Source: Candidatus Omnitrophota bacterium
GTDB taxonomy: Bacteria; Omnitrophota; Gorgyraeia; Zapsychrales; Zapsychraceae
Length of the DNA stretch: 64,000 nt
Assembly: GCA_021108075.1 (NCBI GenBank)
Contig: JAIORP010000168.1
Coordinates: forward strand, 2,649 to 66,648
Reading direction: 5' to 3'
Shown here: piece by piece, positions 30,314 to 56,279 of the stretch
Position numbering within the stretch: the stretch's first letter is position 1
Layout of the letters: each line of letters begins with the position of its first letter
Notes under the pieces: generated by a model
What the model saw: the letters and a program-made list of their open reading frames with translations, nothing else
Databases searched by the model: none
Told to the model about the DNA's origin: nothing
Program-made: the position numbers and the translations under genes

Positions 30314-30407
30314 GGATCGGTTTCTCCATTCTCATTTCAAACTATTGTTATGGGCTAAAAAACGTTCATCCAAACATTTATTATGTCAGTTAAAACGGTA
30401 AATGATT

Positions 30408-30432: not shown

Positions 30433-30477
30433 ATACAATACAACCCGTGATTTTAAACAACAAAACATATGCATCTC

Positions 30478-32306: not shown

Positions 32307-32320
32307 TGAGTTTCCCTATT

Positions 32321-33454: not shown

Positions 33455-33464
33455 GGCGCAGTCA

Positions 33465-38464: not shown

Positions 38465-41400
38465 TTAAAAATAAGGAATAGTAATATCTATCTTCGTTCC
38501 CTTGTTCTGACGGCCTTTAAACGATATCGATCCATTCAGCGACTGCAGACGTTCTTTCATCCCAATAACACCTAATGACTTTTTATCTGAAATCTGCTTT
38601 TCGGTGATGCCGATTCCATTGTCCTGTATTGTAAACTGGATAAAATCCTCCGTAGATATAATGCTAATAGTAATTCTCGTCGCCCGGGCATGCCGCAGGA
38701 CATTGGTCAAGGCCTCTTGAAAAATCCTGAACAACACGGTCGCGACTTTCGGTTCAACAAGATGCTCCCCTTCGGAACGAACAAGGCATGTGAGGCCTGA
38801 CCGTTTCTCAAACTCCTGGGCCTGCCATTCGACCGCAGCAATGAGTCCCAAATCATCGAGAATGCCCGGCCGAATCTCACTTGAAATCTTTTGAACCCAA
38901 TGAATTGTATCATCAATCAATTTAAACATCGATTCAATTTTATCTAAACTTCTCGACTGGTCATTCACATGCGTTTTAAGCCAGGCTAAATCCATGCGTA
39001 ACGCGGTTAACGCCTGGCCCAATTCATCATGCAACTCACGCGCTATCCCCTTACGCTCTTCTTCACGCTCCTTATACAGGTGATCTGATAAATGTTTCAA
39101 TTTTTCATTGACATCGCTCAATTCACTGTTTTTTAACTCAAGTTCCCACTCAGCTTTTTTGCGGGCTGTGATATCCATCCCCTGGACAGAAATATAAGCA
39201 ATCTCGCCCGAATAGCCTTTAACCGGTTGAAAAACGCGGGCAGCAAATACTTTTTTTCCGTTTTTATCAAATGACACGCAGTCATGTTCCGAACGCTGGC
39301 CTTTCGTGGCGGCTTGAATAGATTTTTTTATTGTGGATATTTCTTCCTGTGTTTTTTCCCAGAACCAGGCTTCCCAGAGAGGTTTTCCTATGATCTTCGT
39401 CGGAAAACACCCATAGACATCATAGACCAACTGGTTAACCTCCAGCGTGTTCCCGTCTAAATCCGTAATCACAAAAAACTGAAAAAAAGATTGATCAAAA
39501 AACATCCTGAATCTCAGTTCACTATCACGAGAAGCCTCTTCGGCTGTTCGACGGACAGAAATATCTTTAAGAAAACCCAGATAACGATCCTCACTAATTT
39601 TTACCGTATCAATATTCAAATATCCCCTTGAGCCATCCTTGCGAAGATGCATCAGTTCTCCTTTAGACAGGCCTTTTGTGCGGACGCTGTTAAAGTGCGC
39701 CATGGCTTGTTTTTTCCAATCGTCGGGAAATAAATCCGGCATAGACATTTTTAATAGCTGCTGACGGCTATATCCTGTTATATTTGTAATGGCCGCGTTG
39801 GCCTCAATATACTGCCCCTTCTTGTTTGTGACCAGAATGCCATCCGGGGCGTTCTCGATATAGCTGCGAAACTTTGTTTCACTTTCGACAAGTGCCGTCT
39901 CCACACGCTTTCGGTCTGTTACGTCCAATAAAAGGCCATCCCATAGATACGATTTATCAGGCAACTGCTGCACACTGGCCAGAGCCCTCACCCATCTTAT
40001 TTCTCCCTCGGTAGACTTGACCCGCCAGGAAAAATCCCATTTCATATTCTTTTTAGCCATTTTCAGCAAAGTTGTCTTCAAAGACAGGATATCCTCCTCA
40101 ACGATAGTTGCCCGGATCAAATCATCATCGCTTAAAATTTGATCTGCCGTCAAACCAATAATTTTTTGAGTCCCTGAGGTAATATATTTAAACGCGCCTT
40201 TCGCGTCATTTTTGGGGTGCCAGTATTGAAATATGACTCCCGGCAAATTTTCAGTAATATTGGATAATTGTTCTTTGGTTTCCAACAATTCCTGTTGAGC
40301 GACTTTACGTTCGGTTATATCCGCGATAACCGTGATATGACAATCGGGGGCCTCCCCGATAGACCACATCGGTGAGACAGACAAACTGACCCAGACAACC
40401 GACCCATCTTTACGGCAGAACCGTTTCTCCATCGTAAACTCACGGATTTTCCCGCCGACAAGCAACTTCATACTATCTAAATCAGCCTTCAAATCATCAG
40501 GGTGTACGATGTCTTGAAACGTTTTTTTAAGCATCTCTGACGTCGAGTAACCGATGATTTCCCCGTAACGCTGGTTGATGCGGACAAATCGGCCTGTCCG
40601 CGAAATGATCTGGGCGACACCGACCCCCGCCTGTTCAAATATTGTCCTAAACCTAAGCTCACTTTCCTGCAATTGATTAAACACTTTCTGACGGGCTGAC
40701 ATTTCCAAATGCAACCGGGTCGCGTTAGACCTTAACTGTCGATTGGTGGTTATAAGTTCTCGTCCCCTGGCCTTCAATTGCCGGTTGGCGGCCTTTAAGT
40801 CCTCCTCAACCAGAATGAGTTTAGTAATATCATTGTGGATGCAGATGGCATTGATGACATTCTCATCTTTATCAAGGATGGGAGCGATAACAATATCAAA
40901 GACTATCAATCCATCGTCCTTAAATTTGATTTGTTTGACCTGATTTAATCGGTAGTGAAGGATAAAATTAATGGTTTTCTTAGCTGTAAAGACGCTTCTG
41001 ACTAAAGGCATTAATCCTTGCTTCTTAGCTTGCGCGTCCTTTAATACATTGTATTTACCGACAATATCCGTCCCCCCCGGGCCCAACAGTTGCAGTAAAG
41101 CCCGGTTCACTCTGACAATCGTTCCTTTTCCATCGCTGATCCACATGGGTGAAGGCGTTTTTTCAATGATTTCATCCAAAAACCTTTCATGTTTACGCGC
41201 TGCCCATTCAACCTGTTTGCATTGTGTGATATCTTCACCCGAACTCAAAGTTGTGACAATTCTTCCTTGATTATTGCGAACAATTGTATTGTGCCATGAA
41301 ATAATCCGCCTTTTACCTTTGCGGGTTAGGATTTCATTTTCATAGTATTCAACCGGATCAAGCTCCCCGCACATAATTGACCGAAAATATTTTTTAACTT

Positions 41401-42622
41401 GTTTATTGATATCCTTCGGAAGGAAATAAGCAAACCAATCTTTACCTAACGCGTACTTCTCGCTGCATTCTAACAATTCGCAACCTTTCTTATTAATCAA
41501 TTGAATACATCCCTTGCGGTCCAAAACCAGTAAGATCACGCCGGCGATATCGAGGTAATTCTGGATGCGGTCTCTTTGCCGCCTGATATTGATTTCTTTT
41601 TGAATCAGGTTCTTATTGACATCTCTCAACTTTTGTTCATTTGCTTTCAGCTGTTCATTCAACGTTAATAAACGATGTTCCACTTTTTTCATGCGCGTGA
41701 TATCATCGAGCACGCATATTGTCCGCAGAAACTCACCCTGTTTATTTTTTAAAGCTGATGAATTTTTCACGACATCAATAAACGAGCCATCTTTACGCAC
41801 GAATTGGCAATGGTCCCTAAAAGAACGACCTTTTGAGATGACCGTCTTTAAATTTCCTGCCGCGAGCGCGCGATAATCCGGATGAATAAACTGGGATATG
41901 GGTTTGCCGATGACTTCTTTCCTGGTGTAACCTAATACCGCCTTGATCCTTTTATTGCAGTCAATGATGACGCCCTTGTGGTCGGCGGAAAGGATCAAAT
42001 TTGCGGCTGTATCAAAAATGGACCGGTATTTTTTCTCATTTTTTAAGGCCTCTTCCTTAGCCTTTTCTTCAGCCTGCATTTGTTGTCTCAATTTTAATGC
42101 TTGAGCGCGTAATTGTTGATTAGCAGTATGCAATTGAATTTCACTGACCTGCAATTGCTGGTTCATCGCTTTGAGGGTCATGCCCGGGTTCGTCCCTCGT
42201 GCGCTATCGACCAAATACTCAATGACATAGACCAATTGACCTTCCTGGTCAAAGACAGGAATCCCGAAGATATCAACTTGCTGCGTTTTTCCAGCGGTCA
42301 ATTTCTTTAAATGTTTTAAAACAACGCTGCGCTGCGATTTCTTGACTTCTTTTAAGGCGCAGGGCCAGTTGGAGGGACATTTTTTTTGACGATTGTGTAA
42401 AACGCGATAGCAAAAATTTTCTCCTTTTGCCATATCAATCTTTGCGACAGGGTTCGCGTAGAAAACTTTATATGTTTGAATATCGATAACAACAACGGGA
42501 AAGGGAAGAGCTTCAAGTCTTGCCCTGGTCGATTGATTCAGAACAGGTTGTTTCGCCTGACTCAAAACCAGGGGTGCAGCTTTCTTTTTCTTATTCATCA
42601 TCCTCTCCCCGTCAGAATTCAC
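38465..42622 (-). CDS. Multi-PAS/PAC sensor histidine kinase of the HisKA_3 (NarX/DegS-like) type
   Basis: 1385 aa. It has about 7-8 PAS/PAC repeats and coiled coils. The H-box is ELHDELGQALTALRMDL (HisKA_3) and a C-terminal HATPase_c follows (IQDNGIGI). No receiver domain is present. Confidence 0.85.
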   Translation of the reverse strand: MNSDGERMMNKKKKAAPLVLSQAKQPVLNQSTRARLEALPFPVVVIDIQTYKVFYANPVAKIDMAKGENFCYRVLHNRQKKCPSNWPCALKEVKKSQRSVVLKHLKKLTAGKTQQVDIFGIPVFDQEGQLVYVIEYLVDSARGTNPGMTLKAMNQQLQVSEIQLHTANQQLRAQALKLRQQMQAEEKAKEEALKNEKKYRSIFDTAANLILSADHKGVIIDCNKRIKAVLGYTRKEVIGKPISQFIHPDYRALAAGNLKTVISKGRSFRDHCQFVRKDGSFIDVVKNSSALKNKQGEFLRTICVLDDITRMKKVEHRLLTLNEQLKANEQKLRDVNKNLIQKEINIRRQRDRIQNYLDIAGVILLVLDRKGCIQLINKKGCELLECSEKYALGKDWFAYFLPKDINKQVKKYFRSIMCGELDPVEYYENEILTRKGKRRIISWHNTIVRNNQGRIVTTLSSGEDITQCKQVEWAARKHERFLDEIIEKTPSPMWISDGKGTIVRVNRALLQLLGPGGTDIVGKYNVLKDAQAKKQGLMPLVRSVFTAKKTINFILHYRLNQVKQIKFKDDGLIVFDIVIAPILDKDENVINAICIHNDITKLILVEEDLKAANRQLKARGRELITTNRQLRSNATRLHLEMSARQKVFNQLQESELRFRTIFEQAGVGVAQIISRTGRFVRINQRYGEIIGYSTSEMLKKTFQDIVHPDDLKADLDSMKLLVGGKIREFTMEKRFCRKDGSVVWVSLSVSPMWSIGEAPDCHITVIADITERKVAQQELLETKEQLSNITENLPGVIFQYWHPKNDAKGAFKYITSGTQKIIGLTADQILSDDDLIRATIVEEDILSLKTTLLKMAKKNMKWDFSWRVKSTEGEIRWVRALASVQQLPDKSYLWDGLLLDVTDRKRVETALVESETKFRSYIENAPDGILVTNKKGQYIEANAAITNITGYSRQQLLKMSMPDLFPDDWKKQAMAHFNSVRTKGLSKGELMHLRKDGSRGYLNIDTVKISEDRYLGFLKDISVRRTAEEASRDSELRFRMFFDQSFFQFFVITDLDGNTLEVNQLVYDVYGCFPTKIIGKPLWEAWFWEKTQEEISTIKKSIQAATKGQRSEHDCVSFDKNGKKVFAARVFQPVKGYSGEIAYISVQGMDITARKKAEWELELKNSELSDVNEKLKHLSDHLYKEREEERKGIARELHDELGQALTALRMDLAWLKTHVNDQSRSLDKIESMFKLIDDTIHWVQKISSEIRPGILDDLGLIAAVEWQAQEFEKRSGLTCLVRSEGEHLVEPKVATVLFRIFQEALTNVLRHARATRITISIISTEDFIQFTIQDNGIGITEKQISDKKSLGVIGMKERLQSLNGSISFKGRQNKGTKIDITIPYF

Positions 42623-42951: not shown

Positions 42952-44691
42952 TCACGGGTTAACAGTAAATTTATCAAAAATTTTTTGAAGTTGTGGAGAA
43001 GGCATGACGCAATTTTCTTTTTCCTCTATTTGATGGATCGAAGCCGGTTCATTTATGTAGACCTCAACCCATACACCATCTTTTTGAAAAACATCGACGC
43101 GTTTAAAATGATGATAAAACAGGTCCCTGACTGTCTTCGTCTCCTGGTCAAGCAACCCATCCTTGATCCACATGGAATAGACGAGCCATAACCGGTTAAA
43201 AGACAGGTCTTCAATATTGAACTCACTTAAAAGCCGATCATTCTTAAAAGGCGTGAATTTATAAAACTGTAATGGATCGCTTTCATCCACAATATCATAT
43301 TCGTTTTCCATGCCCAGGAAAAAAATTTCAAAGGCCGAAATCCCATACGGAAAAAACACCTTGTAAAAAGATTCTGGCAGTTTGTCCCGGTATTTGGCAT
43401 AATGCCGATAGACTTGCTGACGGGTTAAAACATAAGAATGAAAATTTGCGGCAACAACGATATCGCCCTCCTTCATATTCAACGGCAGGGGATCTAATAT
43501 CTCAGAGGCCTGTCTTTTCGGGGGTGTTCCCATAAAAACAGCCTGCAAGTATCCACGCGGATACGCGTAACCCTTATAATAGTTTGTCAAAGCCGGCAGC
43601 TGAAAAGCGCAGAAAATAATGACGCAGATGACTTTATAATGTTTTTTCTTTAACGCGTCGATACCGCACGCCATCAATAAATAATAGAACGGCGAGAAAA
43701 TGATCAATTGCCGATGGACAAAAACAGGTAAAATCCATCTCGAAAGATAAAACATGATGATCACCGGACAAAACAAAAAAGCACTCAATGAAACCGACTG
43801 GACCTTATCCACCTTAAATAAAGCGAAAATGCCATAACAGGCTATGGAAAAAAAGAACAAAAAACTTAATAAAAAATGAAAATAATTCGACCCCGAATAA
43901 CCGACACCGAAAATCATCCAGGCAAAAAGAAAGACTTCATATCTGGGTGAAATCAGCCAAAAATTCTTTCTGACCATGTCCATGTGCTCAGAAAACAATG
44001 CTTTAAGGGCAAAAATAACGATTAAAATAATTACAATCGACAGAATCCACTTGAATAATTTTGAACGGTGTTTTTGCGTTAATAAAGGTATGAAAGAAAA
44101 CAGCAGCAAAAAAACAGCAAAATAATTCGACAGCACAGCCATGAAACCCATGACCGTGAACATCACCCAATGCCCCCGTCGATCCGTTTGAAAAACCTTC
44201 AGATAAAAATAAACCCACACCAAACAGACAAAAACCGCCATAGCGTACCCGCGCGCTTCCTGCGCGTACCAGAGATGGAATGGATTAACCGCCATGATAA
44301 GAAGGGTGTAGAACCCCACACGGGGATTCACAAAGTGATGGGCGATATACCACAAAACAATCAGGGCCATCATACTGAAAAAGACAGACATCAGCCGCAG
44401 CGACATACCATCGCCGATCAGCACACTGTAGAGATAGACAAGAATATTATAAATCGGGGAATGCGGGTCGCGCATCAACATATCCGTGAAGACTTCAATC
44501 GCAGGGGTGTCCGTCAATTCAGCAGTGATTTGAATGCTCTTCGCGCCATACAGATCATTACCGATCTCATCATGCCACAAATCAAAAAAATCATAATGGT
44601 ACAGACGAAGCCCTAAAGCAAGAATAAATAAGAATAGACAGAGAATTTTACGGATAGGTAATTTATTGGATAAAACTATGAAATCAAACAT
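42952..44691 (-). CDS. GT-C fold membrane glycosyltransferase (GT39/GT83, PMT/ArnT-like)
   Basis: 579 aa with about 12 TM helices. The acidic first-loop motif FFDLWHDEIGNDLYGAK matches the DE motif of PMT/ArnT. It has a C-terminal soluble domain. Confidence 0.5.
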   Translation of the reverse strand: MFDFIVLSNKLPIRKILCLFLFILALGLRLYHYDFFDLWHDEIGNDLYGAKSIQITAELTDTPAIEVFTDMLMRDPHSPIYNILVYLYSVLIGDGMSLRLMSVFFSMMALIVLWYIAHHFVNPRVGFYTLLIMAVNPFHLWYAQEARGYAMAVFVCLVWVYFYLKVFQTDRRGHWVMFTVMGFMAVLSNYFAVFLLLFSFIPLLTQKHRSKLFKWILSIVIILIVIFALKALFSEHMDMVRKNFWLISPRYEVFLFAWMIFGVGYSGSNYFHFLLSFLFFFSIACYGIFALFKVDKVQSVSLSAFLFCPVIIMFYLSRWILPVFVHRQLIIFSPFYYLLMACGIDALKKKHYKVICVIIFCAFQLPALTNYYKGYAYPRGYLQAVFMGTPPKRQASEILDPLPLNMKEGDIVVAANFHSYVLTRQQVYRHYAKYRDKLPESFYKVFFPYGISAFEIFFLGMENEYDIVDESDPLQFYKFTPFKNDRLLSEFNIEDLSFNRLWLVYSMWIKDGLLDQETKTVRDLFYHHFKRVDVFQKDGVWVEVYINEPASIHQIEEKENCVMPSPQLQKIFDKFTVNP

Positions 44692-44786: not shown

Positions 44787-45038
44787 TTAACCGTTACGGG
44801 CACACAAGGCAACATATCTTGCAGGTAAATAGGGCCTGGTTGATCCTGTCTGGGCTTGATTAATCCACACAAAACCACCACCCCCGCAACCACATACACC
44901 TGACTGGCAATTGCGCAAACGAAATGTCGCGCATTGGGCTTCCGCGTAACGCGTTCCGACACGCAATCCGATAACGGAAATAAGCACAAAAGCACACAAA
45001 AAAATTAATAATTTTATCGTTGTCTTAATTCTTTCCAT
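44787..45038 (-). CDS. Small secreted Cys-rich peptide, paralog 3 (83 aa from the ATG)
   Basis: Signal peptide then AEA-QC. The mature peptide of about 48 aa has 5 Cys, a CGC motif and a C-terminal TRPYLPARYVALC. It has a strong Shine-Dalgarno (GGGAGG). It is in tandem with two paralogs. Confidence 0.6.
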   Translation of the reverse strand: MERIKTTIKLLIFLCAFVLISVIGLRVGTRYAEAQCATFRLRNCQSGVCGCGGGGFVWINQAQTGSTRPYLPARYVALCARNG

Positions 45039-45071
45039 CAAACATCCTCCCTTTAAAAAAACATCAAAAAC

Positions 45072-45320
45072 TTAGCTCCCCAGGCAAAGGGTCATATATC
45101 TTGCCGGAACATAAGGGCGACCAGAACCGCATTGTGTCGTTGAAACAGGATTGTAACCAGCAGGACAACCGCATCCACTACTATTGCAGGTTACAACCGT
45201 ATAGCGGACACACGCTTGGGCTTCCGCGCGCGGCACATACAATTTGACACCCACTATGATAGACACCGTTAAAACACTTAAAAAAATTGTTATTAAAAAA
45301 ATATAACTTATTTTCTTCAT
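45072..45320 (-). CDS. Small secreted Cys-rich peptide, paralog 2 (82 aa)
   Basis: Signal peptide then AEAQA-C. The mature peptide has 6 Cys, CGCPAGY and a C-terminal GRPYVPARYMTLC. It has a Shine-Dalgarno GGGAGG. Confidence 0.6.
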   Translation of the reverse strand: MKKISYIFLITIFLSVLTVSIIVGVKLYVPRAEAQACVRYTVVTCNSSGCGCPAGYNPVSTTQCGSGRPYVPARYMTLCLGS

Positions 45321-45429
45321 ACTCTGTCCTCCCTAAAGGATACAAACAGATTATCTGAATTTCAAAAAATACGCAAATTCAAAAGACCGCTTCATAAAAC
45401 CTGTCACATTCGTGATCTTAAGCAAGCAC

Positions 45430-45678
45430 CTATTGCGCGCAAATAGCCGTATACCAATAAGTCGCGTAACTAGGTGAATAAGGGTTTCCCGCCGGTTGAT
45501 TGCGCACCCAACCTGCCGGGCACGGATCCCCCCACTGGCCCGCGGTAGTAGATGAATAAATACGCCAACTGACACATTGCGCTTGTGCTGTTGGTGGTTC
45601 AACACGCAGATTGGAAATACAGAATACGGTCAAAGTGATCAGTATACAAATAATGACTTGAAGTATTCTTTTAAACAT
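45430..45678 (-). CDS. Small secreted Cys-rich peptide, paralog 1 (82 aa)
   Basis: Signal peptide then AQA-QC. The mature peptide has 3 Cys, CPAGW, NPYSPSYATYWYTAIC, and is Ser/Thr/Tyr/Trp-rich. It has a Shine-Dalgarno AGGAGG. An AT-rich putative promoter region lies upstream. Confidence 0.6.
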   Translation of the reverse strand: MFKRILQVIICILITLTVFCISNLRVEPPTAQAQCVSWRIYSSTTAGQWGDPCPAGWVRNQPAGNPYSPSYATYWYTAICAQ

Positions 45679-45873
45679 GCATCTGCCTCCTTTTATGACA
45701 TATACAAAGATAAGTGCCGATGTTATTGATAATATTTTTATATTAAATCTTCATTAATAAGAATAATAGATGCTTTTAAAATAATACCATAAAATAAATA
45801 AAATGCAAAGCCTTTCGTCTTTTTCCTACCCGGCAACGAGACAAAAAAAATTACCTTCCCTATCAGATCAATG

Positions 45874-45978
45874 ATACCAATCCCATTAAATAATGACCAA
45901 AACCGATTCTGCTTTTCTCGACGCTTTAGCGAGAATGTCAGGATTGAAATAAAAACAATTCATTAATGGATTTAGTAT
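45874..45978 (+). repeat. MITE-like element, long form, copy F (about 100 bp of element plus TA flanks)
   Basis: ATACCAATCCCATTAAATAATGACCAAAACCGATTCTGCTTTTCTCGACGCTTTAGCGAGAATGTCAGGATTGAAATAAAAACAATTCATTAATGGATTTAGTAT. The long form equals the short form plus an approximately 22-bp nested hairpin (TTCTCG...CGAGAA) in the central loop. Confidence 0.8.
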
Positions 45979-46125
45979 GGCGATAAAGTAATATCTATCA
46001 AAAATTTTAAAATTATTATTGAACCGGACGGCGAAAAGCTCCCTATCGGTTCGTGTCATCGGTCATCGCGTTCTTTTTATTTCATCCCGGTCCAATAGAA
46101 GTAAAAACCTCAGGGTCTATACCGC

Positions 46126-47331
46126 TCAACGAGACTGGATCGCTTGAAAAACATCATCCGGTCTTATTTGTTGAATACAAATATTATTCTTGCAGGTGGA
46201 AACGCGGTGGTTAAAAACAGACAAACAGGGTGAACAGGGCCATTGGGAATAAAAAATGTGAATATGCTCCCCTAATGGCGCGAAAATCCCGGGACTCTCC
46301 GGTCCGAACAAAACATATTGTTTGATCGACGTCATCGAGGCTAAATGCGCCAGGCCGCAATCATTGGCAATCAAGGCATCCGCGATATCAAACAGGGCAA
46401 ACAACTCGAATATTTGTGTCTGCCCGGTTAAGTCCAGACAAACGTCCTTTCCCAAAGCCTGACAAAATTGCCGGGCTTTCGTTTTGCAATTTTCTGTGCC
46501 GATCAGGAGAACAAAGCAATCCTTTTGAGCAACGATCTTTTTGCCTAATGTGACAAAAGACTCGAACGGCCACTCCCTTAAAGCAAGCACCCCATCACCT
46601 AAATTCATCAGCATCATTCTTGATGCCGCAGGCACGCCCATGCGGATCAATTTTTCCCGCATCGCATCAATGGCTGGCTGTTGGACTTGATATTGAGGAC
46701 GGTCTTGATCATCCATACACTGTCTTTCAATTAAGTCCGGAGTCACCTTGGCCACTGACGCGACCACCTGGCTAAAAGCCAAAAACATCTCACTGATATG
46801 TTTTTGGGGGTTATAAATAACTTTATGCGTCACTAAATCGCCGCGGTACAAACCTTCGAAGCTAAACCGGTCAAACCCAATCCTTTTTGGCGCGGAACTC
46901 AAATAAGACAGAATAGCGGTAAAACGGGAAAAAAATTCTAAATCTAAGACGACATCCACTTTTTCCTTTCTCATGCCGGCAATGACCGCAAACACATCAT
47001 GAACGAACTGTGAGAATGTCGTATCGCGAATCGTGTATATCTTTTTTAATGGGATGATATCCAGGACATCAAATATTTGACGGTTGCATTCAAATGTCAC
47101 GAAAAAAAACTGAGCCTGCGGATAAGCCGCCTGCATCCGCCTGATAAGGGGATAAGACAAAACAATCCCTCCCATTTCCGATGGCTTTAAAAAAAGGATC
47201 TTTCGCGGATTCGGTGCGGTATCCTTTTTTGACCTAAAAAGACCCGTAAGCTTATTAAAAACTGTCAGGAAGAAACACAGCGGAATGCCAACCCAAAAAT
47301 CTATAAATCGCATAAAATTTAATGTCATCAT
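46126..47331 (-). CDS. Glycosyltransferase family 9 (heptosyltransferase-like)
   Basis: 401 aa. The C-terminal motif NDCGLAHLASMTSIKQYVLFGPESP resembles the GT9 consensus (NDSGPMHLAAA...LFGPT). Confidence 0.65.
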   Translation of the reverse strand: MMTLNFMRFIDFWVGIPLCFFLTVFNKLTGLFRSKKDTAPNPRKILFLKPSEMGGIVLSYPLIRRMQAAYPQAQFFFVTFECNRQIFDVLDIIPLKKIYTIRDTTFSQFVHDVFAVIAGMRKEKVDVVLDLEFFSRFTAILSYLSSAPKRIGFDRFSFEGLYRGDLVTHKVIYNPQKHISEMFLAFSQVVASVAKVTPDLIERQCMDDQDRPQYQVQQPAIDAMREKLIRMGVPAASRMMLMNLGDGVLALREWPFESFVTLGKKIVAQKDCFVLLIGTENCKTKARQFCQALGKDVCLDLTGQTQIFELFALFDIADALIANDCGLAHLASMTSIKQYVLFGPESPGIFAPLGEHIHIFYSQWPCSPCLSVFNHRVSTCKNNICIQQIRPDDVFQAIQSR

Positions 47332-47477: not shown

Positions 47478-49151
47478 CTAATGATTTGGGCCTTCCTTTT
47501 TCTTGTACACATAAAATAATGTCATCATCTGACGGTCGGTCGACAGATTAAAAAAATCTTTCTTTTCGACTAAATCATAATGAGCGCGCACGGCCTGGAC
47601 GATTTCCTCCGTCCAACTTTGATAATGAATACCGATATCCGAAAGAACAATGAGATCAAAACGTTGAGAAACAATATCATTAATCAAAAGAGACTGGTCC
47701 CAATGCCCCCGGTCAGACAATTCCGTCATGGCAAAGGGGCTATAAAGCGAAAGTTTTCCATTGATAGCCGCGTATCCGGCATATTCCAGAAGAACTTCTC
47801 CCGGAGCGTCATGGACCAATTGGTTTAATTGTTGAGCGATTTTTTTATTATATTCATCTGGAACTGTGCGGTCGACTTTAATAAACAACATCCCCAACTG
47901 CAAAAGCAGACAAAGACTGATGGCGATTTTAATTAAACCGTTTTTTATACCAAATCCATTAATAAATTGTTCTATCTTAATTCTGATATTCTCGCTAAAT
48001 CGTCGAGAAAAGCAGAATTGGTTTTGGTCATTATTTAATGGAATTGGTATTAACGTCTCATTATCCAGCGCTAAGGTCTGTGAGAGGGCACAACCCGTCA
48101 GGATACAGATCGCCGCCCAAATCTCAAGGAAATAATTCAGGGAAGACCCATCTTTACCGGCTGTCACCGTAATGGCACAGGCAAAAATAAAAAAAAAGTG
48201 CTCGAGGCGCCATGACCTTTTGAGGCCATGATAAAAAATCAGCCCCAGAGACAATAAAAAAACAAATCCGTGAGACGCGATAAACCGGCCCATCCAATCG
48301 AAATATCTGTCCCACTGAAAAGCGCCGAGCGTATAACGCGTAATGTGATAAACAAATTGCCCTTTTGTCATAATCAACATCCCGATCACAAGCGAGACGC
48401 CAAGGCCTGTCAGGACAGACAATAAAATCATTATTTTTTTTAAATTCTCGTCATTCCAGGAGACATTGAATCGGATCCCATTCGGCTGACGGCAAGCGAG
48501 CAGCGCCAGACAACTGAATGGGGCCGCGATGGAACTTTGACGCGAAAACAATGCGGCGATAAACAAACCCGCGGCCAGACAAATCTTCTTCATATTATTT
48601 TGAGTATCGCCTTCTATAAATAAAACGAGTCCCCAGACCGAAAACATCACCGCCAGCATATCAACCCGGACCAGAACAGACCAAATATGGACCCACCCTG
48701 AAGAAACGAACAAAAAAGCAGAGAATAACGCCGCCATGTTGTTTTTGGAGCGCGCGTAGACAAACCGCCCGATCGCGTAGGCGCTCAATACCGCGGCGAT
48801 AATGGAAATCAGACGCCCCAAAATTAATTGGGGTCCGAATAAACGGATCAGCAGGGACAACAAAAAAGCATACAAAGCGGGATAATTCATCACAAAGAAA
48901 GGTTCCTGATTTAAGGGAGTAAAGACCGGAACACCTTGAGACATCGCGTACGCCGACTGAAAAACCAATCCCTCCCCGCCATTAACATCATAAGGGAACG
49001 TGGCGATCTGATAGGCATACAGGAGATAGGCCGCACATTGAACAAGCAGAAACAGCACCGCCAGGCAAATAAAAATATGAAAAGGTTTGTTCGGATTGAA
49101 ACAATTTTTGAAAATAAAAAAATATTCTTTCATGCAACTCCGACTCATCAA
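47478..49151 (-). CDS. GT-C-like polytopic membrane protein carrying an in-frame MITE insertion (34 extra codons)
   Basis: 557 aa with about 10-11 TM helices and a C-terminal soluble domain. Residues IPIPLNNDQNQFCFSRRFSENIRIKIEQFINGFG are the translation of MITE copy G (47947-48050). Confidence 0.5.
   Translation of the reverse strand: MMSRSCMKEYFFIFKNCFNPNKPFHIFICLAVLFLLVQCAAYLLYAYQIATFPYDVNGGEGLVFQSAYAMSQGVPVFTPLNQEPFFVMNYPALYAFLLSLLIRLFGPQLILGRLISIIAAVLSAYAIGRFVYARSKNNMAALFSAFLFVSSGWVHIWSVLVRVDMLAVMFSVWGLVLFIEGDTQNNMKKICLAAGLFIAALFSRQSSIAAPFSCLALLACRQPNGIRFNVSWNDENLKKIMILLSVLTGLGVSLVIGMLIMTKGQFVYHITRYTLGAFQWDRYFDWMGRFIASHGFVFLLSLGLIFYHGLKRSWRLEHFFFIFACAITVTAGKDGSSLNYFLEIWAAICILTGCALSQTLALDNETLIPIPLNNDQNQFCFSRRFSENIRIKIEQFINGFGIKNGLIKIAISLCLLLQLGMLFIKVDRTVPDEYNKKIAQQLNQLVHDAPGEVLLEYAGYAAINGKLSLYSPFAMTELSDRGHWDQSLLINDIVSQRFDLIVLSDIGIHYQSWTEEIVQAVRAHYDLVEKKDFFNLSTDRQMMTLFYVYKKKEGPNH
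47947..48050 (-). repeat. MITE-like element, long form, copy G, located inside the 47478..49151 ORF
   Basis: ATACCAAATCCATTAATAAATTGTTCTATCTTAATTCTGATATTCTCGCTAAATCGTCGAGAAAAGCAGAATTGGTTTTGGTCATTATTTAATGGAATTGGTAT. A 100-bp element plus 2 bp of TA equals 102 bp, which is 34 codons. Confidence 0.8.
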
Positions 49152-49181: not shown

Positions 49182-49997
49182 TCATGTCGTTTTAGAAAGA
49201 CACTGTTTCTTAAGGTATTGCATTCCGTCATTAACCTTTTCACTGTAAAACCGCATCATTTCTTGTTCATATTCATCATAAGAATGATCATACAAATAAT
49301 ACGCCTTAACAAAAATGTTAAAAAGGATCAGTTGAAAACAACGGCCCTGCATCTGGTGGTCCATCCTTGATCCTTTAACATCTTTGGACGGCATCAGTCC
49401 CAATTCGTAAAGCCTGGAACCCGCCGTGTTACTGTTGCTGTCCTCTTCACCGGTATCTGTAGCCGGGATCATTTTATCAAGACGCAGGCGCTCAACAAAC
49501 CCCGTCTCCTTATATCCGTCGAAGTCGAAAACAGGATTAGAATACATCACCCCAAACTCGGCGTAAAGGTCTTTGATCATCTCAACACCCCGTTTCATTT
49601 GCGCGGGAAAAATATTCATCCCCTGGTTCGCCCCATCGCAAACATGCGCCACCTGATTGTCCAGGCAGTACAGGATCGTCTGCATATGCATGGCTAACTT
49701 GCATAAACCACAATTTGACAGAAGAAAAAATCCGAATTTACGCCAATAATAGAAATAGCGCGAGTAAAACACAAACCTGGTGATGGCATCGACGTCGATG
49801 ATCGCATGGCTGAACTTTTCCTGTCCATATTTTTCCTGCAGTTTATGAACATTGAATGTTGAGTTCTTCACGCGAAAGAAGCCAAACCGCCTGTAAGTGA
49901 CCAGATGGACCCTGGAGAATTGCTGAGAAACTAAAGCCGCCGCAAGAGTGGAATCCGTTCCACCGGAGAACAAAACGACAATTTCATTTTTATTCAA
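49182..49997 (-). CDS. PP-loop ATP pyrophosphatase (QueC-like, N-type ATP PPase superfamily)
   Basis: 271 aa. It has the SGGxDS motif (VVLFSGGTDSTLAA) and a Cys cluster NCGLCKL. Confidence 0.55.
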   Translation of the reverse strand: MNKNEIVVLFSGGTDSTLAAALVSQQFSRVHLVTYRRFGFFRVKNSTFNVHKLQEKYGQEKFSHAIIDVDAITRFVFYSRYFYYWRKFGFFLLSNCGLCKLAMHMQTILYCLDNQVAHVCDGANQGMNIFPAQMKRGVEMIKDLYAEFGVMYSNPVFDFDGYKETGFVERLRLDKMIPATDTGEEDSNSNTAGSRLYELGLMPSKDVKGSRMDHQMQGRCFQLILFNIFVKAYYLYDHSYDEYEQEMMRFYSEKVNDGMQYLKKQCLSKTT

Positions 49998-50178
49998 CCG
50001 GCTTCTCCTTTTTAACAGCTTTCCTTAACTGCCCGACGATAAACTTCAACAGCGAAAAATACATAAAATAAAGTCCTTGAACGATCCAACCGATGAATTC
50101 CGTGTAAAGGCACCGAAGTTTATACGGCAATACCATGGCTACGCTGCAAATAATACATGCGAAAAATTTTTTTAACAT
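49990..50178 (-). CDS. Small hydrophobic protein, translationally coupled between the rSAM and PP-loop genes
   Basis: 62 aa with two predicted TM segments. It overlaps the downstream gene by 8 bp and starts 4 bp after the upstream stop. Confidence 0.3.
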   Translation of the reverse strand: MLKKFFACIICSVAMVLPYKLRCLYTEFIGWIVQGLYFMYFSLLKFIVGQLRKAVKKEKPVE

Positions 50179-50181: not shown

Positions 50182-51633
50182 TCAACCCTGTTCTTTCTTG
50201 AGTTGTAAAAACAGATATCCCTGCAGCATCAAACTGATGGCCTGAATATAATTCTTCAAAAAACGCCCCTTCGACGGGTATTTCTTCAAACATTTTAAAA
50301 AGCGTCCCCCGTTCAAATAAAAACGCTGTTGGGCCATCAACATCAGATGGTTTAACCGGCCAGCTGACACGTCGCTGTGCGAGCCTTTTGACGAATAATA
50401 GCTGACATCCTTAAATTCAAAATCAATTTTCCTGTCATCACTCAGGTTTTGGCTCTTTGACTGATAAATCTTAAGGATATCATCATATGCCGTGAACTTA
50501 AAAAATGAAGCGGTATCCAATTCTGAATGAACCGCGAAATCAATTGTTTTCAGCATCTCCTCTTCTGTTTCCGATGGAAAACCCAGCATGAAATAACCGC
50601 CGGTTATGATTCCGGATTGTGATGTCTTAAAAATAATATCACGCGCGGCTGATAAATCTAAATTTTTATTAATCTCTTTCTGTAAACGCCCGACAGCCGT
50701 CTCAATACCGTAAACAAGCTTGTATGTGCCGGCCAGTTTCAACAATTGAATCAACTCTTCGTCCATTTTATCAACGCGCAATCCATGGGGAAAGGAAAGG
50801 CTAACATTTAAGTTCGCATCAATAATCCTCTGACATATTTCTTTCGCGCGTTGCATGTCAAAATTAAAAACCGCGTCAAAAACGTGAAATTCACGCACAG
50901 CATACTTTTCTTTAAGGTTGACCATCTCAGCTAAAACATCGTCTGGTTCCCGCGCGAAGAAACGGTTCGAGTAATTCTCCCGGCAATATGTGCATTGATA
51001 CGGACAGCCTCTGGAGGTCATAATCGGCAGGTAATACGCCCTTTTCAACATGCCGTTCCAATTCGCGTAATGAGAATAGCTTTTGGCATCGATGAGGTCC
51101 CAGGCCAACGGAGAAATTTTTGTTACGGAAAAACCCGCAGGACGAGGATCCATCGAATTCCAACAGACAGTCCCTTTGTCTCTGTAAACGAGTCCGGCGA
51201 TTCGCTCATATCCGGATTGCCTTTCAATCGCTTTAATCACCAGGGGGATAATTAAATCCAGCTCTCCCGTAATGGCATAGTTGATGTGCGGATCCATCAG
51301 TAAATAACGGCCGGCAATCATGGCCAACTGTCCGGATACGATGACAACCGCGTTTTTGTTGCGCGTCTTCATCGTCGCGGCCCATTCATGCACCAGGCCC
51401 GCTTCCCAGGCCAACGCGTGCAAACAGAGATAATCCGGATCGATATTGTCGAGGTGCTGTTCAACATCATCACCGGTCAACGAATCAATCCCCATATCGA
51501 TAATATGAACATTTAATGCCAGAGGATCATCCTCGTATAGCGCGGAAACAGCATAAAGGATATCGACCGGAGGCACAGGCCCCCCTAAACCAACAGGCTT
51601 AAATGGCCGAATGAAAAGAATTGTTTTAGACAT
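50182..51633 (-). CDS. B12-binding domain radical SAM protein (class B)
   Basis: 483 aa. It has an N-terminal Rossmann-like B12-binding region and the CxxxCxxC motif (SRGCPYQCTYCRE). Confidence 0.85.
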   Translation of the reverse strand: MSKTILFIRPFKPVGLGGPVPPVDILYAVSALYEDDPLALNVHIIDMGIDSLTGDDVEQHLDNIDPDYLCLHALAWEAGLVHEWAATMKTRNKNAVVIVSGQLAMIAGRYLLMDPHINYAITGELDLIIPLVIKAIERQSGYERIAGLVYRDKGTVCWNSMDPRPAGFSVTKISPLAWDLIDAKSYSHYANWNGMLKRAYYLPIMTSRGCPYQCTYCRENYSNRFFAREPDDVLAEMVNLKEKYAVREFHVFDAVFNFDMQRAKEICQRIIDANLNVSLSFPHGLRVDKMDEELIQLLKLAGTYKLVYGIETAVGRLQKEINKNLDLSAARDIIFKTSQSGIITGGYFMLGFPSETEEEMLKTIDFAVHSELDTASFFKFTAYDDILKIYQSKSQNLSDDRKIDFEFKDVSYYSSKGSHSDVSAGRLNHLMLMAQQRFYLNGGRFLKCLKKYPSKGRFLKNYIQAISLMLQGYLFLQLKKEQG

Positions 51634-51641
51634 AACATCTT

Positions 51642-52952
51642 TTAGTTTTGAACACGAATCATATCATTCCGGACCACACGCTCATAAATCTTTTGGGCGA
51701 TCAAATTATGCCCCACAGCGTTGGGATGAATCGTATCACCATCCGGGTCCAGAAACAAATATTGCGCATTATTCATTTGATTAAATTTTTTAAACTCTTC
51801 AACAATATCAACAACGACAATCTTCCTGTCATCAGCTACCTTTTGCATTATATCATTATAAACCCGGGATAAAGAAGCACACTCATGCAGTTCCATCTCA
51901 ACACTTTTCTTATAGAAAGCGTGACTGCGGTCGGACTGCCGCAGGACCTCATGATATTGCCCCAGATAATAATATGTTTCACTCGAGTGGGGATGATAAG
52001 CCAATGCTTGATTCAGCATTTGAATCGCCTTTTGATAGTCTTCTTTCCCGGCAGCCTTCAGGGCGTGCTGAATGAATTGATCCGACTGAGATCGGTTCTT
52101 TTCAGAAACAGGATCAACGGACGGCAAATTAACAGGCATCTTAATAAAAACAATTTGGATCCCTTCCTGGTGGGCGATACGCACAAAATCCAGCAGGTTC
52201 TTTGCATACGATTGATCTGAGACCCTCCGGTTTGTCATATAATAACGTTGCCCGGTTTTTCCAAAATATTGCATGGCGGTCGATGAGGATCGAACCATCA
52301 AGCGTTTTAATAACGCGACAAAGTGACTGCGGCTCAGAATGTTATCAACGGCAATCAATAGGGGTGAAATGGGTTCCAATTCCATATCACTCTTTCCATT
52401 GCTTCGAAAGAAGCGATGCTTATCGACATCATTAATGACATAGGAAACCGTTATCAAGTCCGGCTTTAATGATAATATGGATTTCTTTAACAACTTCAAA
52501 CCTTGAAAGGAACTGTAACCAATGGACCCCGCGTTCATCACTTCCACGCGCTGAGCCTTTGTTTGACCGGATTGAAGCAGATCCTGCAAGCGATGGGCAT
52601 ATGTTTGTTCTTGACCGACGCCCCATCCGAATGTCGGTGACGCCCCCAGGCAAACAATACGGAAGACATCTTGCCCTTTGCCAGTCACCGGGCCGGACCG
52701 GAAGCCGAATTGATTTGTCTTGATCAACTTCCCGGAAAAGGATGTTGACAAATGAACGCGTTGCTTCCAGAACAAATCGAAATCTTGTTCTAAAACAGCC
52801 AGAATGTGTTCCATCGGTGTCTTATGACGCGTGAGAAGATATCCCAGCCCTTCAAAAAACAGTAAAATAAACAAAAAAAAGACAGCCGCAATGAATGGGC
52901 CTTTATATTTGTCCATAAAGATGGAACCTCTCGCGTATCCCAAAATAATCAA
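51642..52952 (-). CDS. SGNH/GDSL-type hydrolase with an N-terminal TM anchor and TPR-like segment
   Basis: 436 aa. It has a GDS-like block IVCLGASPTFGWG and a C-terminal DPDGDTIHPNAVGH (the SGNH D-x-x-H block). Confidence 0.55.
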   Translation of the reverse strand: MIILGYARGSIFMDKYKGPFIAAVFFLFILLFFEGLGYLLTRHKTPMEHILAVLEQDFDLFWKQRVHLSTSFSGKLIKTNQFGFRSGPVTGKGQDVFRIVCLGASPTFGWGVGQEQTYAHRLQDLLQSGQTKAQRVEVMNAGSIGYSSFQGLKLLKKSILSLKPDLITVSYVINDVDKHRFFRSNGKSDMELEPISPLLIAVDNILSRSHFVALLKRLMVRSSSTAMQYFGKTGQRYYMTNRRVSDQSYAKNLLDFVRIAHQEGIQIVFIKMPVNLPSVDPVSEKNRSQSDQFIQHALKAAGKEDYQKAIQMLNQALAYHPHSSETYYYLGQYHEVLRQSDRSHAFYKKSVEMELHECASLSRVYNDIMQKVADDRKIVVVDIVEEFKKFNQMNNAQYLFLDPDGDTIHPNAVGHNLIAQKIYERVVRNDMIRVQN

Positions 52953-53012
52953 TCTATGAATGCAAGATCACACCTGATATTGTCGGAATTAGTCAGGATG
53001 AAATAAACCTCT

Positions 53013-53222
53013 TTAAAATAAAGCATAAATCGCCGGCAGTATCGACTGATTTCCTGTGAGGCTAATAAACAAACCTAAGAAGGCTAAAACGAAAAGAAAC
53101 GGCAATAACCACCATTTCTTATTTTCCTTTATCAAAATGTACAGTTCCATTAATAATTCTATATTTGATTCAAAACGTGATTTCTTAGGCTTACCCTTTT
53201 TTGTTCCACTATATTTGTTCAT
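53013..53222 (-). CDS. DUF5989-like small membrane protein
   Basis: 69 aa. The core ELYILIKENKKWWLLPFLFVLAFLGLFISLTG..AIYALF is recalled from memory, unchecked, to resemble DUF5989 proteins. The true start may be an internal Met. Confidence 0.4.
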   Translation of the reverse strand: MNKYSGTKKGKPKKSRFESNIELLMELYILIKENKKWWLLPFLFVLAFLGLFISLTGNQSILPAIYALF

Positions 53223-53448
53223 CTGATGCTCTTTTGTTCTCGTAAGACATGAAATGATTTTACCACTGATATATTTTAATCCTCAATGAGAATAAATAAA
53301 ATAAAAACTTTCTGTTCCTATCCCGCACGAGCCAAAAAAATGATGAGCACGCGCAAAGGCTGATTAACACCACACAAGTATAACATCCATCCCGTTTTAT
53401 ATCTTGAATAATACCAAATCCCCTCTCTGTTGGCACATTCGGACTGAA

Positions 53449-54765
53449 CTAGGCGACGTGCACCTTTTTTTCACCGAACAAATAATAACGGATTTTTTTC
53501 ACGAAACGGCCCCGGTTGTGCCGCAGGACCAGGCGCCGTAAAATAAAACGGAAAACGGAAAACTTAAAAATCAACCGCACATTAGCCCACATCTGCCACC
53601 TCTTATGCTTAAGAACCTCTTCATCCGATGGCAAAGCCTTGCCGGAAGACTGTGACATCAACGGCTTAAAAATATTATAATGAATAAAGTCAAAATCAAA
53701 CCGGCGCGATTGACGGATGTCGGCCTTCACCTCGGACAGTGTCTGCCCCGGCAAACCAAATATCAGGCTGCAACAAATTTCGACCCCGAGGTCTTTGCAC
53801 CGTTGCACGACATCAGCGACCGTCTGAGAAGATTGCCTGCGGCGGTTTCTTTGCGTGAGCGTATCATGAAACGATTCAACACCTAATGATATGCTGTAAC
53901 AACCGGCAGACGCCATCGCATCGATCACATTCAGGTCTGTCATTTCACTTAGAGGGATCACGCCCGCGCATTGCCACTCAATAGTGTCCGGACGCTCCCC
54001 GATAAGGGCACACAGGCCTTTGATTCTTTTAATATCATGACCGATAAAGTTCTTATCCTCAACGTGAAACTCCCTGATGCCATATTTGTCAACCAGATGC
54101 GCCATTTCATCAACAATGTTTTGTGGTGACCGGACACGATAAGGCTGGCCGATAACAGATTCAGCGCAGTAGGAACATTTGTGCACACAACCACGGCTGG
54201 TTACTATCTGAGCGTAAATCTTTTGACGCGTGAGCATACCATTTGCATACTGCCCGACAGAAAAAGAGTCCCGGTCCGGAAACGGTAAATCATCAAGGTT
54301 ATTGATCAACGCGAGCTCCCCCGCACGCGTGCGCGTTGTTTGCCGGTTCAATACGCCTTTAATGTTATAATCACGATTTTGTGTGAGGGCCTGACATACC
54401 TCAGAAAAAGCGTACTCCGCGTCCCCTCGGATGGTCGCCTCGATCCCGGGGATCAAAGCGAACAAGTCCTTGCCGGCCAATGTTGCATACTCCCCCAGAG
54501 CGACGACACGGACAGGCTGAAGGCTTTGAATGTTCCGGCACAGGTCTGCCGTGTACGGGTTCATATCAGACGCGACATCTATCCCGACAAGATCAATGCG
54601 TTCCTCTCTCATAATGGATAAAACCATATCGGCCGGATCAAAAAACAAATCAACACCCCGGACACGCCAACCCTTTTTCTTCTGTATCGCGGCGATGGTT
54701 CCCAATGTAAACGGAAAAATTGGTTCCATGTTATGTTTAGGAATATTGATCAATAATAGATTCAT
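53449..54765 (-). CDS. B12-binding domain radical SAM protein (class B)
   Basis: 438 aa. It has a CxxxCxxC motif (SRGCVHKCSYCAE) preceded by a B12-binding-like N-terminal domain. Confidence 0.85.
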   Translation of the reverse strand: MNLLLINIPKHNMEPIFPFTLGTIAAIQKKKGWRVRGVDLFFDPADMVLSIMREERIDLVGIDVASDMNPYTADLCRNIQSLQPVRVVALGEYATLAGKDLFALIPGIEATIRGDAEYAFSEVCQALTQNRDYNIKGVLNRQTTRTRAGELALINNLDDLPFPDRDSFSVGQYANGMLTRQKIYAQIVTSRGCVHKCSYCAESVIGQPYRVRSPQNIVDEMAHLVDKYGIREFHVEDKNFIGHDIKRIKGLCALIGERPDTIEWQCAGVIPLSEMTDLNVIDAMASAGCYSISLGVESFHDTLTQRNRRRQSSQTVADVVQRCKDLGVEICCSLIFGLPGQTLSEVKADIRQSRRFDFDFIHYNIFKPLMSQSSGKALPSDEEVLKHKRWQMWANVRLIFKFSVFRFILRRLVLRHNRGRFVKKIRYYLFGEKKVHVA

Positions 54766-54792
54766 AGCGAAACAATTTATCTTTGCAGAGAG

Positions 54793-56229: not shown

Positions 56230-56279
56230 AAATATTTCTTCCGACGATCGTCCATCATCCCGCTAAAAAACAGCACCTG

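Follow-up and report, generated by a model that had tools for sequence, protein, structure and literature searches.

A previously unannotated family of small, predicted exported cysteine-rich peptides is encoded beside one type of GT-C glycosyltransferase in Omnitrophota

Introduction

In bacteria, protein glycosylation by GT-C glycosyltransferases is carried out by general systems (PglB, PMT) and by a few dedicated pilin modifiers. Enzymes of the PMT type use polyprenyl-phosphate sugars to modify Sec-exported proteins. TfpW has a GT-C fold, and its gene is located directly downstream of pilA. In Pseudomonas aeruginosa, TfpW is described as a periplasm-facing arabinosyltransferase/oligosaccharyltransferase that acts on the pilA product (bioRxiv 10.1101/2020.04.19.049825). 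Sublancin-type glycocins bear their sugar on one Cys in a Gly-Cys-Gly-Gly/Ser loop, and the hallmarks of glycocins are a cytoplasmic SunS-type glycosyltransferase, a double-glycine leader, the SunT ABC/C39 exporter, BdbA/B and an immunity protein (PMC6405829). Here, we analyzed a stretch of 64,000 nucleotides (nt) from a Candidatus Omnitrophota bacterium (assembly GCA_021108075.1, contig JAIORP010000168.1, positions 2,649 to 66,648 of the forward strand; termed the window), which contains a tandem array of three genes for small cysteine-rich peptides followed by the gene of a GT-C glycosyltransferase. The Omnitrophota, a phylum not yet cultured, comprise ultra-small bacteria that may depend on hosts; very little is known of their surface biology, and a literature search on Omnitrophota glycosylation clusters returned nothing relevant.

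Results

A peptide family confined to Omnitrophota-type genomes

When 1.84 billion cluster representatives were searched exhaustively by HMMER with a profile built from the three window peptides, only seven further family proteins emerged, which are 77-88 amino acids (aa) long and all have the same layout. P0011, a 945-aa repeat protein from the same search, was rejected as a low-complexity false positive. The exhaustive search was needed because the family is too short and divergent for word-indexed searching, which returned, with 3- and 10-sequence profiles, essentially just the query organism and a few short contigs. A family set of 41 unique members was gathered by searching the small open reading frames (ORFs) of the fetched loci (L numbers) with the family hidden Markov model (HMM), which matches paralog 1 of the window at 7e-20.

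In this layout, the N-terminus is basic and leads into some 20 hydrophobic residues and a spacer of 8-10 aa that ends in A-x-A-Q. It continues with a Cys and an alternating strand-like segment, C-V-x-[FY]-x-L, and then with a Gly/Ser-rich loop ending in C-[GP]-x-G-[WYF]; [AV]-L-C stands near the C-terminus, with 2-6 residues after it. The three window peptides matched nothing in Pfam or NCBIfam, and the PDB contains no relative of the family; an NCBIfam line to MtsC was discarded as noise (18.8 bits against a cut-off of 350). The original prediction, made from the letters of the window, had left the family unrecognised and had held the ORFs to be genuine. The family is indeed absent from these curated libraries, and the ORFs are not due to chance, since homologs of the same architecture occur in other genomes. 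On this sequence evidence, the peptides are a previously unannotated family of small, predicted exported proteins, so far only in Omnitrophota-type genomes. The cassette was present in 6 of the 185,579 GTDB species genomes scanned, and the family, as judged from its distribution, is restricted to a small subgroup of Omnitrophota.

Some members depart from the common picture. L018_4781 (L018 4781-5269, 162 aa) has an extra Gly/Cys-rich C-terminal tail of about 70 aa and 17 Cys in its mature part. In L017_1718 (L017 1718-2089, 123 aa), a second ...YLCLFN module at the end looks like the result of a partial domain duplication. At L007 7630-10267, the genes preceding P0009 (6 Cys; the sole member for which no GT-C gene was found nearby) on its strand encode a Trypsin_2 protease and an FHA-domain protein, and an ammonium transporter gene and chemotaxis genes adjoin it.

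The peptide array is linked to one type of GT-C gene

The peptide alignment contains no conserved stretch of 7-10 columns, and loci were therefore reached through the GT-C. Genomic contexts of GT-C homologs were collected by three routes (look-up of the exact protein, GTDB species genomes and JGI metagenomes), and the small ORFs they contain were then searched with the family HMM. At about 15 independent Omnitrophota loci, an ortholog of the window GT-C (identity of at least ~30-31%) is directly preceded on the same strand by one to three tandem members: the window, L008, L009, L010/L011/L021, L012, L013, L015, L016, L017, L018, L044, L094/L096/L097, L098 and L101. L017 carries two GT-C copies, and each of them has its own array upstream. 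Where upstream DNA was available, all GT-C genes at or above this identity were preceded by an array except those of L095 and L020/L102/L103. Around more distant GT-C relatives (below ~30% identity) no family member was found, neither in L014, L019, L020 and L099-L103 nor in more than 130 other loci of Omnitrophota, Anaerolineae and other origin. The connection to the adjoining GT-C enzyme that had been proposed for the window is thus supported by conserved synteny, and this gene pairing suggests that the peptides may be dedicated targets of the enzyme.

The neighbour of the array is a GT-C fold enzyme

The 579-aa protein matches PF13231 with 29.8 bits (cut-off 26.1, E=8e-7), and D37, D41 and E42 in its first loop are invariant among 11 orthologs. 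An AlphaFold2 (AF2) model with a predicted TM-score (pTM) of 0.77 has a C-terminal soluble domain, as do PglB/STT3 and ArnT. Foldseek searches with this model returned GT-C enzymes with a probability of 1.00: STT3, PglB and AglB with E values of 6e-8 to 4e-6, ArnT with the best TM-score (5ezm, 0.52/0.56), and then ALG9/12, Pmt4 and AftA. As judged by its Pfam match and by the structural match of the model, the protein is a GT-C fold enzyme. Sequence searches of the PDB with it gave no match.

Homologs of this enzyme carry the NCBI label 'glycosyltransferase family 39 protein'. We rejected an assignment to the GT39 protein O-mannosyltransferases proper, as only PF13231 was matched, and not the PF02366 PMT core, a MIR domain or PMT_4TMC. 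The NCBIfam mannosyltransferase model NF052499 gave 30.5 bits against a cut-off of 900.

The three peptide genes of the window

The peptide genes belong to a Candidatus Omnitrophica metagenome-assembled genome (locus tags K8S27_12450/55), and their coordinates are listed in Table 1. The original prediction had described three tandem paralogs of 82-84 aa, each with its own strong Shine-Dalgarno sequence, giving mature peptides of about 48 aa with 3, 6 and 5 Cys and with shared motifs. All of this was recovered. The minus-strand ORFs encode 82, 82 and 84 aa; in the ORF listing, paralog 3 covers 44787-45041 and begins at TTG 45041. Its start is most likely ATG 45038, giving 83 aa, because this is the NCBI start of P0001 and because the Shine-Dalgarno spacing then equals that of genes 1 and 2. 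The Shine-Dalgarno sequence is located 7 nt before each ATG and reads GGAGG for gene 1 and GGGAGG for genes 2 and 3 (on the plus strand CCTCC at 45686-45690, CCTCCC at 45328-45333 and CCTCCC at 45046-45051, respectively). The predicted mature parts of 49, 48 and 49 aa have the Cys counts given above, CPAGW/CPAGY is present, and CGC and GS.RPY.PARY..LC both occur in paralogs 2 and 3.

Identity to paralog 1 is 33-36% in full-length alignments, and paralogs 2 and 3 share 36% over 80 aa. The mature peptides are cationic, with isoelectric points (pI) of 7.9-9.4. Along the strand, gaps of 109 nt (paralogs 1-2), 33 nt (paralogs 2-3) and 95 nt (paralog 3 to the GT-C gene) separate the genes. Intergenic fold z-scores of -0.3, -0.1 and +1.6 revealed no attenuator, terminator or unusually stable RNA structure between these genes, and an Rfam scan of the whole window gave no match.

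An AT-rich, promoter-like region had been described before the first gene. Its AT-richness stands: the spacer has a GC content of 33%, falling to 22% over 45700-45830, compared to 42.5% for the window. The promoter-like label is not demonstrated, since sigma-70-like matches (for example TTTGCA-17-TATTAT at 45809-45781) are no commoner than in shuffled sequences (8 vs 6.0 +/- 2.0).

Table 1. Coordinates of features within the 64,000-nt window; a slash in a peptide sequence marks the predicted cleavage site.
Feature	Position	Strand	Description
Multi-PAS sensor histidine kinase	38465-42622	-	1385 aa; directly downstream of GT-C; not conserved at other array loci
GT-C fold glycosyltransferase, PMT_2 family	42952..44691	-	579 aa; starts 95 nt downstream of paralog 3
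Paralog 3 (P0001)	44787..45038	-	83 aa; ...TRYAEA/QC, mature 49 aa, 5 Cys, CGCGGGG + GSTRPYLPARYVALC
Paralog 2 (P0002)	45072..45320	-	82 aa; ...VPRAEA/QAC, mature 48 aa, 6 Cys, CGCPAGY + GSGRPYVPARYMTLC
Paralog 1 (P0003)	45430..45678	-	82 aa; N-terminus MFKRILQVIICILITLTVFCISNLRVEPPTAQA, mature 49 aa, 3 Cys (only C1, C4, C5), CPAGW
AT-rich spacer, 447 nt	45679..46125	-	upstream of paralog 1; presumed promoter/5' region of the peptide/GT-C transcription unit
GT9 heptosyltransferase-like glycosyltransferase	46126..47331	-	401 aa; upstream of array
Second PMT_2-type GT-C, very divergent	47478..49151	-	557 aa; PF13231 E=6e-6
QueC-like PP-loop ATPase	49182-49997	-	between radical SAM run and GT-C/GT9 genes
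B12-binding radical SAM gene	50182-51633	-	
GDSL/TPR protein	51642-52952	-	between radical SAM run and GT-C/GT9 genes
B12-binding radical SAM gene	53449-54765	-	
B12-binding radical SAM gene	54793-56229	-	
Radical SAM gene	56280-57734	-	Radical_SAM match only
DUF362/4Fe-4S protein	57736-58926	-	
GT2 family protein (PF00535)	62806-63561		251 aa; 17 kb from array; homologs in L013, L044

Export signal, cysteines and predicted fold

The window peptides begin with M-[FKE]-[KR] and continue with an uncharged core of about 20 aa, longer than usual, which leads to AQA/Q, AEA/Q and AEA/Q. Among 32 members, Ala occupies position -1 in 31 and Ala or Val position -3 in 27, and Gln (27 members) or His (4 members) is found at position +1. 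The N-terminal hydrophobic signal with an A-x-A-Q site that had been read from the window therefore recurs as a Sec-type motif pattern across the family (-1 Ala 31/32; +1 Gln/His 31/32), from which we infer cleavage. The N-terminus fits a Sec signal; its removal by signal peptidase I would leave a small beta-sheet peptide with Gln as the first residue.

Two other classes of exported protein were considered and rejected. For a lipoprotein, no lipobox ([LVI][ASTVI][GAS]C) is found at C1, Gln mostly precedes C1 and charged residues stand before it; the matches of a PROSITE-style lipobox expression all fall inside the mature domain and none at C1. For a type IV prepilin or Flp pilin, the prepilin motif occurs in 0 of 41 members and no Pfam pilin family matches at E<=1.

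In an alignment of 31 sequences only C1, C4 and C5 are invariant. C1 adjoins the mature N-terminus and C5 lies 2-6 residues from the C-terminus. The disulfide pattern was deduced from the presence and absence of Cys across members: C2 and C3 are mostly present or absent jointly, which points to a local disulfide between them, and alternative Cys patterns occur in L012, L016_5536 and L017_1386. The number of Cys is odd in 33 of 40 mature peptides (25 with 5 Cys, 6 with 3 Cys; binomial P 2e-5, uncorrected for relatedness) and even in the remaining seven, window paralog 2 among them. Because of this odd count, most members probably keep one unpaired thiol, most likely C4.

An AF2 model of paralog 2, calculated from an alignment of eight sequences, has a mean predicted local distance difference test score (pLDDT) of 78.9. 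In it, residues 2-26 form a helix, and the three strands span 39-45, 56-64 and 74-81; the pLDDT of the strands is 81-91, and a low-confidence linker runs across the A-x-A site.

Evolution of the array

The three peptides of L013, of the second array of L017 and of L101 correspond to each other in order, and the same position-by-position orthology was found for the two peptides of L008 and L010 and likewise for L015 and L016. For window paralogs 2 and 3, and in L012 and L018, the nearest relative is the array neighbour, indicating lineage-specific duplication. Both patterns exist, and therefore the family expands by repeated tandem duplication yet keeps old, distinct paralogs. Rapid divergence of the kind typical of bacteriocins or effectors had been proposed for the window genes. 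The lineage-specific duplications agree with this, but the position-wise orthologs and an N-terminus conserved like the mature part do not, and the array history, as read from these sequences, does not match simple 'rapidly diversifying toxin' behaviour.

L010 and L095 have genes for T2SSE, a cNMP-binding protein, citrate synthase and GT-C in common. Between citrate synthase and GT-C, L010 contains two peptide genes and a transposase fragment (PF00872) at 6157-7793, and L095 contains 285 nt at 5716-6001. The array may have been gained or lost as one unit between these two loci.

Other genes around the array

The GT9 protein upstream of the array matches PF01075 (E=3e-18), TIGR02195 (E=1e-22, below its cut-off) and WaaF (1psw, E=8e-11). 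In tblastn searches, GT9 homologs with 37-48% identity flank the array in L013, L015, L016, L017 and L044, and a called Glyco_transf_9 gene of 413 aa flanks the L094 array. Taking this recurrence together with the linkage of array and GT-C, we therefore define a conserved core of [GT9] - peptide array - GT-C. The second GT-C of the window has no BLASTP similarity to the 579-aa GT-C, and tblastn placed its orthologs (33-36% identity) near an array solely in L010/L011 and L018. The GT2 protein could supply a lipid-linked sugar donor.

Further upstream, a 62-aa called gene without Pfam matches is located at about 49990-50178, and a 69-aa gene with a DUF5989 match lies between a B12-radical SAM gene and the GDSL gene at 53013-53222 on the minus strand (L001 2099-2308). 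Similar radical-SAM-rich glycosyltransferase islands are present in the Omnitrophota loci L014, L019 and L020.

On the other side of the array, an alpha-glucan/trehalose cluster occupies 17684-35606 on the minus strand. It encodes a 935-aa Alpha-amylase-domain protein (17684-20491), a GH57/DUF3536 protein, a CBM48 alpha-amylase-family protein (22908-24755), a TreS-maltokinase-like fusion (24950-28300), GlgE (28343-30313) and a CBM48 branching/debranching-type enzyme (33465-35606), with genes for a cardiolipin-synthase-like PLD protein and for CorA inserted in it. A 1647-aa protein at 5079-10022 (minus strand) has just a partial PEP-utilizers_C match, and a 772-aa protein at 59130-61448 without a Pfam match is one of just two large plus-strand ORFs. 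Among the window ORFs of at least 150 aa, 33 of 35 are on the minus strand, and the GC skew is negative throughout.

Discussion

Possible roles of the peptides

The explanation we favour, tentatively and with considerable reservation, is that the peptides could be Sec-exported, disulfide-stabilised, dedicated acceptors of a periplasm-facing GT-C enzyme. Precursors of about 80 aa would be made from one transcription unit together with the GT-C and inserted into the Sec pathway through their basic and hydrophobic N-terminus. Cleavage by signal peptidase I at A-x-A/Q would leave about 49 aa beginning with Gln, and this mature peptide would adopt a small three-stranded beta-sheet held by disulfides. 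In this fold, C1 and C5 would presumably be bonded, the optional C2-C3 pair would staple the first hairpin, and the invariant C4, within C-[GP]-x-G-aromatic, would usually have no partner. The exported and oxidised peptides would then be glycosylated in the periplasm by the GT-C with a sugar from polyprenyl-phosphate, and the GT9 flanking the array might supply or extend the glycan. The resulting small glycopeptides would belong to the cell envelope or surface. For the glycosylation step it is the gene linkage that speaks.

Several points weigh against this explanation. Gene adjacency alone does not establish an enzyme-substrate relation, and a GT-C fold cannot separate protein from lipid or glycan acceptors; it is the lipid A enzyme ArnT that tops the TM-scores. 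The pairing has exceptions in both directions, as the GT-C of L095 (34% identity) has no array and an upstream gap of just 285 nt, and P0009 of locus L007 is a member with no GT-C within 10 kb. In the mature part no Ser, Thr or Asn is conserved across the 31 aligned sequences, so there is no obvious common O- or N-acceptor. The combined Ser and Thr content of the window peptides is a modest 10-21%, and the Ser/Thr-rich stretches which the original prediction had taken as an argument for glycosylation consequently carry little weight. The surroundings with GT9, GT2, GDSL and B12-radical SAM genes also fit a lipopolysaccharide (LPS) or glycolipid island in which the peptides have another role. 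Finally, the core of about 20 aa and the conserved N-terminal region also fit a retained membrane anchor.

Alternatively, the peptides could be accessory partners of the GT-C, periplasmic or, with an uncleaved N-terminus, membrane-anchored, which would present the acceptor, stabilise the enzyme or regulate it, comparable to the small subunits of the eukaryotic oligosaccharyltransferase (OST). We regard this as unlikely, though deserving attention. The length of the hydrophobic core would allow a transmembrane helix, and the N-terminal segment is at least as conserved as the mature part, more so among closer orthologs (0.74 vs 0.45 and 0.59 vs 0.40). The module is tightly linked to one GT-C subclade and is duplicated in L017, position-wise orthologs are kept within arrays, and a conserved hydroxyl acceptor residue is missing. 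A retained helix would, however, hardly explain the near-invariant A-x-A/Q site, and a copy number of 1-3 with repeated duplication and large divergence would be unusual for fixed subunits. The occurrence of P0009 without a GT-C also speaks against an accessory subunit.

The unpaired cysteine might instead serve intermolecular disulfides, so that the peptides would be structural components of the envelope or surface, forming covalent oligomers or attachments, and their position beside the GT-C would reflect a shared envelope-biogenesis island. This is quite unlikely in our view. It would account for the prevailing odd Cys count and for the invariance of C1, C4 and C5, and the neighbourhood is rich in envelope genes (GT9, GT-C, GT2, LPG_synthase_TM, GDSL, TamB, Mla). 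Co-location in an island would not, however, keep the array directly upstream of one GT-C subclade and in the same orientation at about 15 loci whose other neighbours differ, and the even Cys count in seven of the 40 members, including window paralog 2, does not fit.

The original prediction had proposed secreted effector, bacteriocin or signalling peptides; such an antagonistic or signalling role, possibly as a glycosylated 'glycocin-like' toxin, we consider very doubtful. Small size, positive charge, richness in disulfides and tandem divergent copies agree with it, and there is a weak similarity to sublancin: PF19151 matches 2 of 31 members with a best E of 0.02, and hhalign gave a probability of 17% (P 0.0014) with AQ-C..L..C...C-GGG aligned to SunA. 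Paralog 3 has G-C-G-G-G-G, to be compared with the sugar-bearing Gly-Cys-Gly-Gly/Ser loop of sublancin-type peptides (PMC6405829). After multiple testing, however, the sublancin similarity is at chance level and counts as a lead rather than as evidence; the leader is Sec-type and not double-glycine, the predicted fold is a beta-sheet and not helix-loop-helix, and position-wise orthologs are conserved between genomes. Pfam scans of the window ORFs of at least 150 aa, except the PAS kinase at 38465-42622, found no ABC/C39 exporter, SunS-type GT2 or thioredoxin/DsbB pair. The same ORFs contained no immunity gene, with small ORFs, where an immunity protein would fall, left out of that scan. In the syntenic loci, precomputed Pfam matches on the called genes likewise included no ABC/C39 exporter, SunS-type GT2 or thioredoxin/DsbB pair. 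By these comparisons the bacteriocin reading has no specific support.

A variant that joins the glycocin theme to the favoured acceptor role is a Sec-dependent, periplasmic counterpart of glycocin biosynthesis, in which the GT-C would glycosylate exported, disulfide-stapled peptides from a lipid-linked sugar, with the sugar maybe on the unpaired C4. We think this improbable. C4 is the candidate site because it is the only invariant nucleophile beyond the presumed C1-C5 bond and sits in a Gly-rich loop.

Least convincing, and in our judgement highly improbable, is that the peptides are precursors of ribosomally synthesised and post-translationally modified peptides (RiPPs), with the N-terminal region as leader and with cytoplasmic modification by the B12-dependent radical SAM enzymes encoded close to the array. 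In its favour, the N-terminal region is conserved, and the window has four genes of the B12-radical-SAM type at 4.5-12 kb upstream (50182-57734). The one protein of these four that was scanned against NCBIfam (50182-51633) is similar below threshold to RiPP C-methyltransferase models (ApyD, TIGR03975), and such genes also occur near arrays in L012, L015, L016, L018, L044 and L094. Against it, the same genes are equally common beside peptide-less GT-C paralogs (L014, L019, L020) and are absent from the flanks of L009, L010/11 and L013, the NCBIfam matches are all far below their cut-offs, and the N-terminus resembles a Sec signal and not a RiPP leader.

If the peptides are indeed acceptors, the cassette would amount to a compact and testable new enzyme-substrate pair, in which the enzyme is coupled to an array of tiny, secreted, disulfide-rich peptides. 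With peptides of about 5 kDa and an enzyme made of one polypeptide chain, this idea is open to a direct test by co-expression and mass spectrometry. In view of the conserved odd Cys, S-linked glycosylation or covalent oligomerisation may also be considered; a sugar on C4 would make this the first GT-C enzyme known to S-glycosylate and would define a new class of extracytoplasmically matured glycopeptides. Were the peptides partners of the enzyme, a small subunit of a new kind would be added to the bacterial GT-C enzymes. In both cases, an unannotated family gains a concrete genomic context.

Comparison with known systems

ArnT gave the best TM-score with the window GT-C, and the neighbourhood with GT2 and 'LPS heptosyltransferase-like' GT9 resembles LPS-modification loci. 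Sequence similarity to ArnT/GtrC-type enzymes is undetectable, however, and we know of no ArnT/GtrC-type system with a conserved array of secreted Cys-rich peptides beside the enzyme.

With the GT39 PMTs, such as actinobacterial Pmt, the window GT-C shares the PMT_2 Pfam family and an acidic D-E motif in the first extracytoplasmic loop, and like them it would draw on a polyprenyl-phosphate sugar to modify proteins exported by Sec. It differs in having neither PF02366 nor MIR, and Foldseek ranks Pmt4 below STT3, PglB and ArnT. PMTs also act broadly and have no dedicated substrate array encoded alongside.

The glycocins (sublancin, thurandacin, pallidocin, glycocin F) resemble the Omnitrophota peptides in their length of about 40-50 aa, odd Cys number and stabilisation by disulfides, and the weak hhalign match to SunA pairs the family C4 in C-[GP]-x-G with sublancin Cys22. 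In contrast, export of the Omnitrophota peptides appears to be Sec-type, their predicted fold is a beta-sheet, and the linked GT-C would act outside the cytoplasm. Membership in the glycocin family was rejected, as the neighbouring enzymes are a GT-C (PF13231) and a GT9 (PF01075), the sole GT2 is 17 kb away and the leader is Sec-type.

The closest precedent for the gene logic of array and GT-C, by analogy, is pilA-tfpW of P. aeruginosa. In pilA-tfpW, as in pilA-tfpO/pilO, the gene of a dedicated, polytopic, periplasm-facing glycosyltransferase adjoins that of its substrate, a small exported protein whose N-terminus is a hydrophobic helix and whose C-terminal domain contains a disulfide, and the Omnitrophota locus resembles this arrangement. 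Here too, at the level of genes, a candidate substrate gene adjoins a co-oriented enzyme gene, and the pairing is conserved (about 15 loci; exceptions L095 and L007). The Omnitrophota peptides differ in having a signal peptidase I-type A-x-A site in place of the prepilin G/F..E motif (0 of 41 members) and in forming tandem arrays of 1-3 copies without linked pilus assembly genes, and in sequence no relationship of the window GT-C to a characterised enzyme can be detected. A cassette of a dedicated substrate and an extracytoplasmic glycosyltransferase would thus be of a kind already known; new here is the synteny of a peptide array with one type of GT-C.

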